A stretch of DNA of 64,000 nucleotides, taken from sequence record PQ100635.1. One strand, 5' to 3'. The DNA comes from Escherichia phage PNJ-9. The notes under the pieces were generated by a model. It was not told where the DNA came from, made no database searches, and saw only the letters and a program-made list of their open reading frames with translations. Positions 1,081-5,668 of the stretch are shown here, one piece after another. Both the position numbers and the translations under genes were made by a program. Within the stretch, counting starts at the first letter, position 1; every line of letters begins with the position of its first letter.

Positions 1081-1444
1081 GCCCTGGGCGTATGAATACA
1101 AGCGTAAATTAATCCCAAATGAAGTACTATTTGGCCCTATTTTAGCTTTAGCGTTTTTAATCTTTATGATTATAGGAGCTATTTTAGATTCCAATAAAGT
1201 TATATCGTCTGATGCAGTGTTTTTACTTATTATACCCGGGTCGTTTATTGTACCATTTTTATTAATGCCTATTAACTGGGCAGGATATTGGTACCAAGGC
1301 CGTCATCACAGAGCTCGAGTTCGTGAGTGGAAAGTTCAGTGCGCAAAAGCCCAAGCTCAATATGATGAAGCTGTTAAAAAGTATGAATATGAAGAAGCTA
1401 TAGAATTCGTTAAGGAAATAAGATGCAAAAGCCTCAACTCTTAA
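1049..1444 (+). CDS. small membrane protein, C-terminal E-x-FhKEhRC tail family
   Basis: Hydrophobic helices; C-terminal EAIEFVKEIRCK resembles tails of ORFs at 1423, 4196, 5189; start ambiguous (1049 or 1070). Confidence 0.5.
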   Translation: MSKPTLYMPSKPWAYEYKRKLIPNEVLFGPILALAFLIFMIIGAILDSNKVISSDAVFLLIIPGSFIVPFLLMPINWAGYWYQGRHHRARVREWKVQCAKAQAQYDEAVKKYEYEEAIEFVKEIRCKSLNS

Positions 1445-1782
1445 CCGTATGGCCGTCTCTTGGTGAGAACATTCTAATTTTTATTATGAGTATTGGCATG
1501 GGATTTGCCTTTGGATTAGTTGGATTTCTTATTGACGGAGTTGTGTTAGGATTTATAGGGAATACAGGTGGATTCACAGACCAATGGCAGGACCTAAGAT
1601 ACACCCAAGCTTTTGCATCTATCGCATCATTTTGTACCGTAGTCTATTTTTACTACGATTTTATAAACCATAACAAGAAAAATAAAAAGGTTTACGCTTC
1701 TCAAATGATTAGTTATAATGAACTCCTAGCTAGACGTGAAAATGAAACAATAGAAAACTTTATTAAGGAATGTAGAAAATGA
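1423..1782 (+). CDS. small membrane protein, C-terminal ENFIKECR tail family
   Basis: Two predicted TM helices; C-terminus NETIENFIKECRK; AAGGA upstream of ATG. Confidence 0.6.
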   Translation: MQKPQLLTVWPSLGENILIFIMSIGMGFAFGLVGFLIDGVVLGFIGNTGGFTDQWQDLRYTQAFASIASFCTVVYFYYDFINHNKKNKKVYASQMISYNELLARRENETIENFIKECRK

Positions 1783-2084
1783 GTAAGATTATTGAAATTA
1801 AAGTACCAGAGTTTAATGATGCCAAATCCGCTTCAGATGCAATTTATAAACTTCTGAATCAAGCTGAACGCATCGAAGAAGAAGCAACAAAGATCGCAGA
1901 CCAATATGCTGTATCATTTTCTGTAGGTGATTATGGTAGCGGTCGTACTTATTATCCTAAGGGTGAAATTGTATCCCAGTGGATGAAAGATGAAATTGAA
2001 AATAATGGTGGTGATGTTAAACGTGAAGGTAATGGTTACGTTATTACTGAAGGTGCTTGGGTTTCTTCTTCTGCGATGTGCTAA
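1779..2084 (+). CDS. hypothetical protein, tandem paralog 1 (GWxSSxxC tail)
   Basis: ATGA overlap with upstream stop; C-terminus GAWVSSSAMC. Confidence 0.6.
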   Translation: MSKIIEIKVPEFNDAKSASDAIYKLLNQAERIEEEATKIADQYAVSFSVGDYGSGRTYYPKGEIVSQWMKDEIENNGGDVKREGNGYVITEGAWVSSSAMC

Positions 2085-2093
2085 GGAATCATT

Positions 2094-2366
2094 ATGTCTA
2101 AAGAACAAACCGAACTGGCTGAAGCCGTAGCAAAAATCTATGCAGCTATTGAGGCTGCCAAAGAAATTGCTGATAAACAAAACACAACATTCGACTTGTA
2201 TCCAGCTTATGGTATGGGTGGAACCTATCATTCACCCGGACAACTTAAAGCCGATCTTGAACGTTGTACAAAAAACGGCTATGCTGAATGGGCTGACGTT
2301 TACCAATACGACTACAACCTGAGCCTCGAAACTGGTGGTTGGATTGCATCTTCTCACACTTGCTAA
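2094..2366 (+). CDS. hypothetical protein, tandem paralog 2 (GWxSSxxC tail)
   Basis: C-terminus GGWIASSHTC; AAGGAA upstream. Confidence 0.6.
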   Translation: MSKEQTELAEAVAKIYAAIEAAKEIADKQNTTFDLYPAYGMGGTYHSPGQLKADLERCTKNGYAEWADVYQYDYNLSLETGGWIASSHTC

Positions 2367-2375
2367 GGAAACCAT

Positions 2376-2573
2376 ATGTCTCGTGAATTAGATTGTGCTG
2401 TACGTACGGCAGTAGCTGCTCTGGAAAACCTGTTCCAAATTGCAACAGAAGAACGCGAAGAAGTTACATTGTGGATTGAAGATAACGCAGGTCTGAATCT
2501 CCAGGACGCGATCTCATTATCCAATAATAGCATTACTGTTCAAGGCTGGGTATCATCTAGTTATTCTTGCTAA
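2376..2573 (+). CDS. hypothetical protein, tandem paralog 3 (GWxSSxxC tail)
   Basis: C-terminus QGWVSSSYSC; AAGGAA upstream. Confidence 0.55.
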   Translation: MSRELDCAVRTAVAALENLFQIATEEREEVTLWIEDNAGLNLQDAISLSNNSITVQGWVSSSYSC

Positions 2574-2577
2574 AACA

Positions 2578-2616
2578 GTTTACAACAAGATAGGGCTATG
2601 TTATAGTAGTCCTATC
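2578..2616 (+). promoter_or_regulatory. early-promoter-like cassette with flanking inverted repeat
   Basis: GTTTAC, 18 bp, TATAGT; IR GATAGGGCTA/TAGTCCTATC around -10. Confidence 0.5.
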
Positions 2617-2635
2617 AAATTAAATGGAGTCCACA

Positions 2636-2875
2636 ATGATTTATTACGAAAGTGTTGGAACTAAAGTGGTTGCTAAAACCATTACTCGTGAAAAGTTTGC
2701 AAAGATATTCGATATGCGTTATAAAAAATCTGAACACAAAGGCATCCGATTCGAAGATGCGCACTGTACAATTTGTCCTTATAATGAAGACATAAACGGT
2801 ACAATCGTTCCATTGGTAGAGGCTTCACATGACGACCTCTGGGATGAATATAATATCGCATGTCGCGAAATTTAA
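2636..2875 (+). CDS. hypothetical protein
   Basis: ORF track 2624-2875; ATG at 2636 with GGAG 6 nt upstream, just downstream of an early-promoter cassette. Confidence 0.55.
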   Translation: MIYYESVGTKVVAKTITREKFAKIFDMRYKKSEHKGIRFEDAHCTICPYNEDINGTIVPLVEASHDDLWDEYNIACREI

Positions 2876-2900
2876 GTAATCTAAATTCGAGGAAATTATT

Positions 2901-3857
2901 ATGATGTTAGTTATTGGTTCTCGTGCACTTCACTATCACAGTCTTATTGATTCTAACGCTATCAAAAATAGTGACTGGGACTTTATTGCAGACCAAGGTT
3001 CTTGGAATGCATTCAAAAATCAAATGATGGGTGTATATGTTCATCAAGATAACCCTGATGTCCAAGTTTTCAAATGCTTCCATAATGGACGCGAAACTCA
3101 TTTTGAAGCATATATTGTTCCGGCAATCACTAATGTCCGTGAATTAGTCGGTGAACTCACTCCTGAAGATTTCACGTCTTCTTATGACCTTTTAAAATAC
3201 GCCAAGAAAAATTTGACTAAAGACCGTTTGAACGGGTTTTACTGGGCAACTCCTGAGATATGTCTTGCAATTAAAATGTCTCATCGTTTCAAGAAAAATA
3301 ATCCATTCTTTTTAAAGACTATGAACCATATTCAGTATCTTCGTGGTAAAGGTGTTACACTGAACGATGAACTTACTGAAATTATGCTGAAACGCCAGAA
3401 AGAAACTTTGAACTATGCTCACCCAGTTCTTGACACTTCTAAAAGTGCGTTCTTTAAAGATGACATCTATACATATGACCATGATACTATTCACGAAGCC
3501 ATTGCACTAACAGACCGTCCGGCTTATACGTTTTACATGAAAGACGGTTCTGAAGTCATGACCTCACGCGAGAAGTTCGAATCGTTACCAGAAATGGTCA
3601 AATTGGCCGGCGTATATGAAGAATCATGTGTACTAGCGTTAGAACGTTCTCAGATTCCTAATAACTTTGAAATTAACCCTGAAGCCAGTTTCATGATGGC
3701 ATTAGAAAAAGTCTGCACAAGCATCACCTCCGGTTGGTTCCGTGAGTTCGCTTGGGAAAATTATAGCAAAGTAGTAAGTATGTATCAAAGCTTAGGACAC
3801 GACGATTACGTCAAGCGTTTCAAACAAAATTTTCATATGGTAAAACCTTTCAAATAA
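2901..3857 (+). CDS. hypothetical protein (318 aa)
   Basis: Long ORF with GAGGAAA upstream; no family assigned. Confidence 0.65.
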   Translation: MMLVIGSRALHYHSLIDSNAIKNSDWDFIADQGSWNAFKNQMMGVYVHQDNPDVQVFKCFHNGRETHFEAYIVPAITNVRELVGELTPEDFTSSYDLLKYAKKNLTKDRLNGFYWATPEICLAIKMSHRFKKNNPFFLKTMNHIQYLRGKGVTLNDELTEIMLKRQKETLNYAHPVLDTSKSAFFKDDIYTYDHDTIHEAIALTDRPAYTFYMKDGSEVMTSREKFESLPEMVKLAGVYEESCVLALERSQIPNNFEINPEASFMMALEKVCTSITSGWFREFAWENYSKVVSMYQSLGHDDYVKRFKQNFHMVKPFK

Positions 3858-4195: not shown

Positions 4196-4501
4196 ATGAA
4201 ATTAACAGAAACCAACCGAATTGGTCTTTTAACAATACTTGCATCACCTTTTTACGCAGCCCTTTCTGTTGCAGTATTACAAAAGGCTTACGATATGGAT
4301 GGTGTTCCTGGTTTTATATTCTTATCGCCGTTTTTGCTATTCGTTGGAGCATTGTTATTATATGCCACGACTGGTTTCGACCATAATGTCTGGGTCAATT
4401 ATAAATGTAAATTGTCTGAAGAAGAACACGCAGAAGCTCGTAAAAAAGCTATTGAATCTACCAATCTAGAAAATTTCATTAAAGAATGTCGAGGAAAATA
4501 A
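4196..4501 (+). CDS. small membrane protein, C-terminal ENFIKECR tail family
   Basis: TM helices; C-terminus STNLENFIKECRGK; GAGGAG upstream. Confidence 0.6.
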   Translation: MKLTETNRIGLLTILASPFYAALSVAVLQKAYDMDGVPGFIFLSPFLLFVGALLLYATTGFDHNVWVNYKCKLSEEEHAEARKKAIESTNLENFIKECRGK

Positions 4502-4502
4502 T

Positions 4503-5189
4503 ATGAATAGTTCTAAAGTGTTTAATAGTCAAGCTCGTGCAGTAGGTGGTTTTGCCGGCGGTATTTCTAATGATAAAATCAAGAACGAGCCTATGTTCTT
4601 CAACTGTAGTTTAGAATTTGCTTATAATAATGGCGGTCCTATTACTCGCTCTTTCATTATGAACTTGCCGGATGATTGGAACACCGACCAGGTTGTATTT
4701 GATTCACGAGTCCACATGCTGATGCCTGGTTGGTATCCTGCTATTCCTGGATATCACCATGATGACGTACCACGCCCAGATATTCCAACAGGACAACATT
4801 TTATTACTGCAGGACAACCTGATTATGACAACCCTCGTTACCATTCTGAACATATTCTTGGTCTTGTTAACGCTGATGTGTGTCCTACTCATTTTGCAAC
4901 AGGAACTGCAGAGTTCAGTCAGATTCCTGATGGCGAACTTATCTATCGCCAGTGGCACAAAGAAGTCCTCGAAAAAATCGAAAAAGGCGAACTAGAGAAA
5001 TGGGAAGCTCCGGACCGTACTCTTCTTCAGTTTGATTGGCAAACATGGCACACTGGTTCTCGTGCAATTAGTAATGGATGGCGGTGGTTCGGACGTGTAT
5101 CTCGTAATACAGACCGAGTTAAAAAGATTACCAATGAAATTCGTGTCAACGCCCAAGTTTATCTGGAATTCCCTATGGAAGGCTGGTAA
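4503..5189 (+). CDS. hypothetical protein (228 aa)
   Basis: ORF track; starts 2 nt after upstream stop. Confidence 0.6.
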   Translation: MNSSKVFNSQARAVGGFAGGISNDKIKNEPMFFNCSLEFAYNNGGPITRSFIMNLPDDWNTDQVVFDSRVHMLMPGWYPAIPGYHHDDVPRPDIPTGQHFITAGQPDYDNPRYHSEHILGLVNADVCPTHFATGTAEFSQIPDGELIYRQWHKEVLEKIEKGELEKWEAPDRTLLQFDWQTWHTGSRAISNGWRWFGRVSRNTDRVKKITNEIRVNAQVYLEFPMEGW

Positions 5190-5668
5190 TGATTAACAAT
5201 AATATAGACGATGGCAATGAAGGTATTTCATACTATTCAGTAGATTGGACAGGATGTCCATCCTACTTAGTGAAACATATTTGCCAAGAATTTAAAATCG
5301 ACCAGCCAGCAGGTATTATCGTGAACAGATACATTAATGGATATCAACCTATCGATGAAGTAATACGAACAACTCAAGCTGAGCTTGAAAAGTTTTTCAA
5401 TAAGTGCCAATGGATAACAGGATGGATTATATTTGTACCGTCAGTGTGGTTTTTTAGTACTAAGGTGAGTTCTTTCGGTTTTGTTGATATTATTGCTATC
5501 TTATTAGCATCTAGTATCATAAGTGTTGTTGGTGGCATCATTGGCGGCGGTACCGCCGCCATCATTATTAATCTTGTTAAAAGTAGTTTACAGGAACGTA
5601 AAGACAAGATAAAGGCCAAGAATAATGAAGTTGAACGTTTTATTACCGAATGCAGGAATTTGAGATGA
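5189..5668 (+). CDS. membrane protein, C-terminal ERFITECR tail family
   Basis: TAATG overlap; Gly-rich TM segment; C-terminus NNEVERFITECRNLR. Confidence 0.6.
   Translation: MINNNIDDGNEGISYYSVDWTGCPSYLVKHICQEFKIDQPAGIIVNRYINGYQPIDEVIRTTQAELEKFFNKCQWITGWIIFVPSVWFFSTKVSSFGFVDIIAILLASSIISVVGGIIGGGTAAIIINLVKSSLQERKDKIKAKNNEVERFITECRNLR

Follow-up and report, generated by a model that had tools for sequence, protein, structure and literature searches.

Small phage proteins that share a C-terminal W-x-x-S-S-x-x-C tail are encoded beside a predicted nucleotidyltransferase

Within the 64,000-nucleotide stretch of Escherichia phage PNJ-9 examined here (sequence record PQ100635.1; hereafter the window), three adjacent open reading frames (ORFs) on the plus strand encode small proteins that share a C-terminal tail, and a gene for a predicted nucleotidyltransferase lies downstream of them. 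ORF1 (1779..2084, 101 amino acids (aa), equivalent to RB69ORF139c), ORF2 (2094..2366, 90 aa, RB69ORF137c) and ORF3 (2376..2573, 65 aa, RB69ORF136c) end in EGAWVSSSAMC, TGGWIASSHTC and VQGWVSSSYSC, respectively, with the tag from tryptophan to cysteine encoded on the same strand at 2058..2081 (W-V-S-S-S-A-M-C), 2340..2363 (W-I-A-S-S-H-T-C) and 2547..2570 (W-V-S-S-S-Y-S-C). The ORF list and the raw sequence agree on three adjacent plus-strand ORFs of 65-101 aa with these endings, as a first-pass annotation of the same DNA had described them, and the AAGGAA that it placed ahead of each ATG is found at 1765-1770, 2083-2088 and 2365-2370, 5-8 nucleotides (nt) before the starts at 1779, 2094 and 2376; for ORF2 and ORF3 its start falls within the TAA stop of the preceding gene. 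The partner enzyme gene (2901..3857, + strand, 318 aa) starts about 330 bp 3′ of the triplet, and its product consists of a predicted DNA polymerase beta (pol-beta)-type nucleotidyltransferase domain followed by an all-helical domain (DUF7277 and DUF7275). The window is the sequence of a Mosigvirus (RB69-like, T4-type) coliphage, and positions 1400-3000 show 100% identity to Escherichia phage PNJ-6 across the queried 1.6-kb stretch. The triplet is flanked by e.3-like and e.2-like/nudE genes in an early/middle region that adjoins a tRNA cluster, and it represents locally a two-component phage module that is widespread and previously undescribed.

A six-frame scan of the window for stop-to-stop segments of more than 24 aa gave SS..C endings in these three proteins only, and across the whole 170-kb PNJ-6 genome (1,411 ORFs) W..SS..C endings are likewise confined to them. 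None of 1,262 ORFs of T4 carries the tail, and its pattern is equally absent from the 2,490 ORFs of 32 unrelated viral loci used as controls. Selection acts on the tail peptide and not on the DNA or on an overlapping ribosome-binding site, because the codons, the stops and the sequence downstream all vary: in 111 distinct tails the fixed serine positions use all six serine codons (TCN and AGY), the cysteine is TGC in 74 and TGT in 37, all three stop codons are used, and the sequence after the stop is variable. A DNA-level origin of the cysteine from the string TGC-TAA-GGA, which would combine the cysteine codon, the stop and a Shine-Dalgarno sequence, is excluded by the use of TGT and of all three stops and by the variable downstream sequence.

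The first-pass annotation had called the three genes a tandem triplet of paralogs, which holds for ORF1 and ORF2 and is unproven for ORF3 outside the tail. ORF1 and ORF2 both match phrog_899 (E 2e-23 and 1.9e-18) and align over about 50 residues (BLASTP E 1e-4), sharing a long N-terminal helix that ends in an I-A-D motif and, between this helix and the tail, a second motif (D/A)YG(S/M)G(R/G)TY (DYGSGRTYYP in ORF1, AYGMGGTYHS in ORF2). ORF3 matches phrog_4882 (E 1.1e-36) and lacks this second motif; both phrogs are functionally uncharacterised phage protein families. When hhalign is run without the last 12 residues, the ORF3-type and the ORF1/2-type subfamilies match at E 0.018 and a probability of 2.6%, over the N-terminal helix only, which is not significant. 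ORF3 forms a separate subfamily and cannot be reliably aligned to the other two beyond its tail. From these comparisons, the tail is much better conserved than the protein bodies. In deposited genomes some versions of ORF1 or ORF2 are truncated and have lost the tail, such as RB69ORF139c (P0002, 71 aa), mar005P1 (P0048, 75 aa) and P0008; P0048, which ends in ...TAMLNGLTFTNTTTT, corresponds to the +1-frame ORF at window positions 2140-2322, and truncated versions of this type are therefore attributed to frameshifts, either sequencing errors or real pseudogenes.

Relatives of the small proteins were found by a word-indexed search in Aeromonas, Serratia, Klebsiella and Xanthomonas phages, and an exhaustive HMMER search of 1.84 billion cluster representatives returned 657 representatives (50%-identity clusters) at E <= 1e-3, 90 of them at E <= 1e-10. 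Nearly all are 65-140 aa long, the last profile position coincides with the last residue of the protein, and 123 of 137 newly returned representatives end in W-x-x-S-S-x-x-C. The consensus of the tail is G-x-W-x-(S/A/P)-S-S-x-x-C, in which the tryptophan, both serines and the cysteine are invariant family-wide and the residue preceding the SS pair is S, A or P. In all fetched DNA 211 of 10,436 ORFs bear the tail (148 unique proteins), and their bodies fall into eight BLAST clusters whose subfamilies are barely alignable once the tail is left out; by single linkage, 114 of the 148 belong to one cluster. The cysteine is not always strictly terminal, as about 7 of the 137 representatives carry one residue after it (for example WVSSTQECN). 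A subgroup of this kind ends in W-[VI]-S-S-T-Q-[EA]-C plus N, R, S or Y (P0083, P0091, P0100, P0116, P0122, P0142, and L018 4459-4719), and a free cysteine carboxylate is therefore not universally required.

ORF1, ORF2 and ORF3 are acidic (pI 4.6, 4.7 (4.66) and 4.1 (4.05)) and have no predicted signal peptide; they are part of a large phage-restricted set of small, acidic, cytoplasmic proteins that is defined by the tail. The AlphaFold2 (AF2) model of ORF1, built from a 32-sequence alignment, is a compact alpha/beta structure with a long helix and a small sheet (mean predicted local distance difference test score (pLDDT) 93.2), in which the tail comprises a final strand (93-96) and a one-turn helix (97-100), with a mean pLDDT of 91 over residues 91-100. 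The predicted fold has no solved relative: it is not the beta-grasp fold with C-terminal Gly-Gly of ubiquitin-like and ThiS-MoaD sulfur carriers, and it shows no similarity to the solved sponges and decoys Tad1, Tad2, Acb2, Ocr and Arn. Scans of ORF1-3 against Pfam, NCBIfam and PADLOC gave nothing meaningful, and sequence-profile searches of the Protein Data Bank (PDB) with the small-protein and the enzyme families returned no match. Public records give the small proteins either as hypothetical or under an incorrect name: their genes are mislabelled 'tail completion protein' in phages C6 and vB_YenM_P8, and a 'major capsid protein' label stands under the small-protein match in NC_018855. The label 'sulfurtransferase' under one BLAST match (vB_Eco_F27) belongs to an e.4-like membrane protein, for which it is likewise a misannotation, and was discarded as irrelevant to the triplet.

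The partner enzyme belongs to a family of at least 2,242 90%-identity clusters that is present in 733 deposited phage genomes, where its members are always recorded as hypothetical except for one 'putative nucleotidyltransferase' and some wrong structural labels, such as 'prohead assembly scaffold protein' in Klebsiella phage vB_KpnM-VAC36. Residues G6, S7, D25, D27 and E69 are invariant in 36 diverse homologs, and the enzyme conforms to the pol-beta pattern, hG[GS]...[DE]h[DE]h plus a third acidic residue on a mixed alpha/beta core. Its AF2 model (pLDDT 91.8) has MenT1 as the closest solved fold, with MenT3, MenT4, ANT(2'') and LnuA also close, all of them nucleotidyltransferases that act on hydroxyl groups. 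The predicted fold and the invariant GS/DxD/E residues mark the protein as a putative pol-beta-type nucleotidyltransferase, and, judged from its intact catalytic residues and nearest folds, it looks catalytically active. The helical DUF7275 half, which has no clear structural relative, contains many invariant Lys, His, Arg and Cys residues. Pfam scans of the 36 homologs returned DUF7277 and DUF7275 only; an identity with RlaP was rejected, as PF10127 gave no match at E <= 1 in 36 of 36. A search for fusions between enzyme and small protein gave none: enzyme ORFs of excessive length lack an internal tail motif and owe their length to start-codon artefacts or to unrelated sequence at the N-terminus. 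In one such homolog (L053 8516-9751) the enzyme hidden Markov model (HMM) aligns to residues 102-411, which leaves about 100 aa as an apparent N-terminal extension with no relation to the tail family; the protein is either a real fusion or the result of an over-called start codon.

The genomic association of tail genes and enzyme is seen in two distant family members on metagenome contigs, both of which have a DUF7277+DUF7275 gene a few genes downstream, and it was examined in both directions, by scans anchored on the enzyme and by a DNA pattern for YGMGGTY that detects the small proteins. The enzyme-anchored set comprises 30 viral loci whose enzymes are 41-97% identical to that of the window, and 28 of these have one to five tail ORFs, all upstream and on the same strand; one of the remaining two (L019) carries a variant tail, SSWVQSSC. 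The linkage extends far outside the T4-like phages, to Klebsiella phi1_175008 (with six tail ORFs in a row), a 341-kb jumbo contig, phAPEC8 (Stephanstirmvirinae), phiPsa397 (Otagovirus), Ralstonia phage RSP15, the Erwinia jumbo phage Hallingskeid and Acinetobacter phage Acj9, and also to Menderavirus and to Stenotrophomonas phage YB07, in which the order is inverted, with the tail ORFs downstream of the enzyme. Diverged DUF7275-only proteins of Streptomyces, Gordonia and Vibrio phages have no adjoining tail ORFs. In 185,579 species genomes the enzyme occurs in five loci only, each with tail ORFs directly upstream and all on metagenome-assembled contigs, four of which are 73-167 kb long.

The YGMGGTY pattern yielded 73 viral loci, consisting of 41 with a true family member and 32 chance matches that serve as controls. 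The enzyme is present in 30 of the 41 and in none of the 32 (Fisher p = 1.9e-11), and 66 of 68 tail ORFs lie upstream on the enzyme strand with a median gap of about 500 bp. In all 11 family loci that lack the enzyme, fewer than 900 bp of sequence follow the last tail ORF, and none of them is therefore a real counterexample. At the level of whole phages, T4 lacks the enzyme, the family and the tail, and PNJ-6 has exactly three tail ORFs and one enzyme. Overall, the tail genes form co-oriented arrays of one to six that are nearly always directly upstream of the enzyme, and that the tail proteins and the enzyme constitute a functionally linked module is well supported by comparative genomics and probable.

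No third conserved component emerged from 19 diverse loci, in which the small-protein family is present in 16 and the next most frequent neighbour, NAMPT/NAPRT of NAD salvage, in 6. NAMPT/NAPRT genes lie near the module at L003 4323-5990 (directly upstream of the tail-protein gene), L040 2376-3878, L045 9671-11437 and L046 4514-6169, as well as in L023, L130 and L132; their proximity could reflect chance clustering of early genes or hint at a connection with nucleotide or NAD metabolism. Four non-T4 phages (L034 3718-4455, L035 9195-9974, L037 3540-4283, L044 8645-9394) encode a NinI-like Ser/Thr phosphatase (Metallophos) no more than a few kb from the module, and such a phosphoesterase might be relevant if the tail serines bear a phosphate-linked group. 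RNA ligase and/or polynucleotide kinase genes are located near the enzyme at L035 1590-4367, L039 8006-9028, L042 4872-5531 and L044 217-3003.

We propose a mechanism with two components, produced in the early or middle phase of infection, in which the tail would serve as the handle through which the enzyme recognises and engages the small proteins. The idea of one enzyme with many tagged clients follows from the tail being invariant while the bodies diverge, from its position at or near the C-terminus, and from the presence of one to six tail proteins per enzyme. Pol-beta nucleotidyltransferases attack nucleoside triphosphates (NTPs) with hydroxyl nucleophiles, and relatives transfer nucleotide monophosphates to (NMPylate) small partner proteins, as MNT does on HEPN and GlnD on PII. 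For these reasons O-nucleotidylylation of a tail serine is the most economical proposal: the enzyme would move a nucleotide monophosphate from an NTP to the hydroxyl of one of the two invariant serines, with the tail tryptophan and cysteine aiding recognition or follow-up chemistry. The neighbouring cysteine would help recognition or react further, for example after elimination. Beyond the linkage of the genes, then, we infer a physical interaction, an action of the enzyme on the tail, a nucleotidylylation chemistry and a role in host takeover or counter-defence. Taken as a whole, the proposal that the tail is the enzyme's handle and that one of its serines is O-nucleotidylylated is plausible yet tentative, and rather more apt to fail in some part than to hold in full. 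Its broadest form, in which W-x-x-S-S-x-x-C is a portable tag of a previously unrecognised phage post-translational modification system and the DUF7277/DUF7275 enzyme covalently modifies a tail serine in each of several small effectors, is doubtful, although it may be entertained. In this form elimination and attack by the terminal cysteine might follow and close a small C-terminal ring, and the modification would arm or regulate the effectors in host takeover or counter-defence.

Several observations weigh against this proposal. Linkage between genes alone cannot tell which partner acts on which, and the sampled lineages are mostly large virulent myoviruses that exchange early-region genes, so that the loci are not fully independent. 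Among the flanks examined, enzyme locus L016 has no tail ORF and H101 has a weak variant only. The tail is ordered in the ORF1 model and not floppy, and may be part of the fold; in some family members a residue lies beyond the cysteine, which is thus either last or next to last. In the window itself the triplet and the enzyme gene are split by a hairpin, a promoter-like site and an unrelated ORF of 83 aa.

Other explanations have to be considered alongside O-nucleotidylylation. The tail might be no more than a conserved structural feature of a single old family, with the adjacency a gene order inherited among related large phages. Large virulent myoviruses, whose early regions are mosaic yet related, do supply most of the loci, and single-linkage clustering places 114 of the 148 unique tail proteins together. 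The rest of the flanks, however, differs among lineages, the arrangement is inverted in YB07, the number (one to six) and subtype of the tail genes vary while the adjacency is kept, T4-type phages without one component are also without the other, and the enzyme is found in 30 of 41 family loci against 0 of 32 controls; this explanation was thus already disfavoured, and is very improbable. Accepting a functional link, the enzyme may instead act on RNA (tRNA 3′ ends or damaged RNA), like the MenT toxins and RNA-repair enzymes, with the small proteins as regulators that dock by the tail and are not substrates, be they antitoxin-like inhibitors, activators or specificity adaptors. The RNA ligase and polynucleotide kinase genes near the enzyme in several loci would suit such a role, but these neighbours are confined to a minority of the loci. 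One to six differing partners that share the tail alone would be unusual for an antitoxin, the partners have no similarity to MenA or AbiEi, PADLOC and Pfam give nothing, and the setting is that of lytic phage early regions and not of toxin-antitoxin loci, all of which makes action on RNA rather unlikely. Should RNA be the target after all, small proteins that control a MenT-like RNA nucleotidyltransferase would represent a new phage route to manipulate or repair host tRNAs.

The ordered, packed tail of the AF2 model is also consistent with an intrinsic binding cap for a metal, cofactor or nucleotide, formed by the tryptophan, the serines and the cysteine together with the YGxGxTY loop of the main family. 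The proteins would then act as sponges or carriers for a small-molecule product or substrate of the enzyme, and the tail would not be covalently modified. We read the glycine-rich loop and the Ser-rich turn as typical of phosphate binding, the proteins are small, acidic and duplicated, as phage sponges and decoys often are, and the small-molecule enzymes ANT(2'') and LnuA are among the folds closest to the enzyme; overall, we regard a binding cap as unlikely. Of the modified or metal-binding C-terminus suggested by the first-pass annotation, which mentioned neither the enzyme gene nor the spread of the tail through a whole family, modification or recognition is strongly though indirectly favoured by the near-obligate linkage of the tail genes to a gene of nucleotidyltransferase fold, whereas no result points to metal binding in particular. 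A further candidate is a precursor like those of ribosomally synthesised and post-translationally modified peptides (RiPPs), in which Ser(-3) or Ser(-4) would be dehydrated and the terminal cysteine would add to it, giving lanthionine, or aminovinyl-cysteine (AviCys) after decarboxylation. The S-x-x-C-COOH spacing matches the AviCys-forming motif of epidermin and gallidermin, tandem paralogous small genes beside an enzyme are a typical RiPP cluster layout, and the helical domain of the enzyme has invariant Cys243 and Cys272 and several His. No LanB, LanM, LanKC, LanL, LanC or LanD/HFCD domain was found among the neighbours in the window, L002, L003, L034 and L035, however, and no protease or exporter is linked in the 19 diverse loci; the prediction is globular (mean pLDDT 93.2), in place of a disordered leader with a short core, and a conserved 'core' with a variable 'leader' is the reverse of the usual RiPP pattern. 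With Lan enzymes not linked and the proteins predicted to be folded, RiPP formation was rejected as the main explanation and can be given little credence.

The module can be compared with several known systems. With epidermin-type AviCys and lanthionine peptides it has in common the Ser-x-x-Cys-COOH spacing and the tandem small genes by an enzyme, but here Lan enzymes are not linked, the proteins are predicted to be folded (65-170 aa), and it is the tail that is conserved rather than a leader. In LPXTG/sortase and PEP-CTERM/exosortase systems a short C-terminal tag occurs on differing proteins, and its presence tracks one cognate enzyme. The likeness lies in this shared tag that follows one enzyme gene; those sorting tags are, however, cleaved membrane-anchoring signals on secreted proteins, whereas the proteins here have no signal peptide or transmembrane segment and their partner is a cytoplasmic protein of nucleotidyltransferase fold.

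Although MenT1, MenT3 (TglT) and MenT4 of the MenAT/AbiE systems are fold relatives, the enzyme lies outside their sequence families (DUF1814/AbiEii), matching only DUF7277 and DUF7275, and carries about 190 aa of additional helical domain. The small proteins differ as well, being of a novel fold, bearing a C-terminal tag, occurring in one to six copies and being unrelated to MenA and AbiEi. The module resides in lytic phage early regions and is essentially absent from bacterial genomes; neither a toxin of the MenAT/AbiE families nor a MenA- or AbiEi-type antitoxin is recognisable in it, and PADLOC returned no meaningful match. In the HEPN-MNT and GlnD/GlnE systems a pol-beta enzyme NMPylates a hydroxyl side chain of a small protein that is encoded adjacently or is regulatory (PII), and GlnD joins the transferase domain to a helical domain. 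By analogy, these systems may serve as the mechanistic model for the module. They nonetheless modify Tyr and not a Ser-rich C-terminal tail, the small proteins here have neither the HEPN Rx4-6H motif nor the PII fold, and no sequence-level relation was detected. RlaP (PF10127) is an RNA-ligase-associated pol-beta nucleotidyltransferase of phages and bacteria (PMC7824862; PMC12776372). Like the enzyme in some of the present loci, it is common in large phages near RNA ligase and polynucleotide kinase genes, but no tail-bearing small proteins are described for it. In T4 a nucleotidyltransferase, nrdC.11, is annotated, but a DUF7275 enzyme and tail ORFs are absent; we presume nrdC.11 to be of the RlaP type.

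The components are already in databases as unknowns (phrog_899, phrog_4882, DUF7275 and DUF7277), and what is new is the link between the small-protein and the enzyme families, together with the tag concept. No paper mentioning DUF7275 or DUF7277 was found, and literature searches on the RB69 ORF names, the DUF numbers, and C-terminal cysteine, phage and nucleotidyltransferase retrieved no prior description. Large virulent phages carry both partners widely as 'dark matter', and viewing the two as one module offers several hundred ORFan families a common hypothesis that can be tested. An enzymatic modification of the tail, if it takes place, would be a phage-encoded protein modification of a new type, based on a short tag that can be transferred genetically, and such a tag could serve in site-specific protein labelling.

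With respect to transcription, a promoter-like site (TTTACG-N17-TATAAT, 1691..1719, + strand) lies within the upstream e.3-like gene and is a consensus match only; the annotation of phage SA79RD has a T4-type middle promoter at L001 5294-5317, which corresponds to about window 1693-1716. A hairpin 3′ of ORF3 (2588..2621, + strand) is annotated in SA79RD as a rho-independent terminator (L001 6189-6222) and was not flagged by the terminator scan of this analysis. The hairpin overlaps an early-promoter-like site at 2579-2607, on which basis the triplet and the enzyme gene may be separate transcription units. The intervening ORF (2624..2875, + strand, 83 aa, phrog_3723) has no tail and is not a conserved component of the module. 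Further downstream, an ORF of 228 aa (4503-5189) matches phrog_1843 (E 1.7e-96), is conserved in related phages and matches nothing in Pfam or NCBIfam.

A second shared C-terminal motif is encountered in the same region, in three predicted membrane proteins encoded by the e.3-like gene (1423-1782), an unnamed gene (4196-4501) and the e.2-like gene (5189-5668), which end in ENFIKECRK, ENFIKECRGK and ERFITECRNLR, respectively. These proteins are alike over their last 13-22 residues alone (BLASTP E 3e-4 to 0.014), and the e.4-like protein (1019-1444), ending in ...EFVKEIRCKSLNS, is a weaker case. Each of these genes abuts or overlaps the start of a gene for a soluble protein, and the AAGGAA of the K-E codons in 1423-1782 also provides the Shine-Dalgarno sequence for ORF1.

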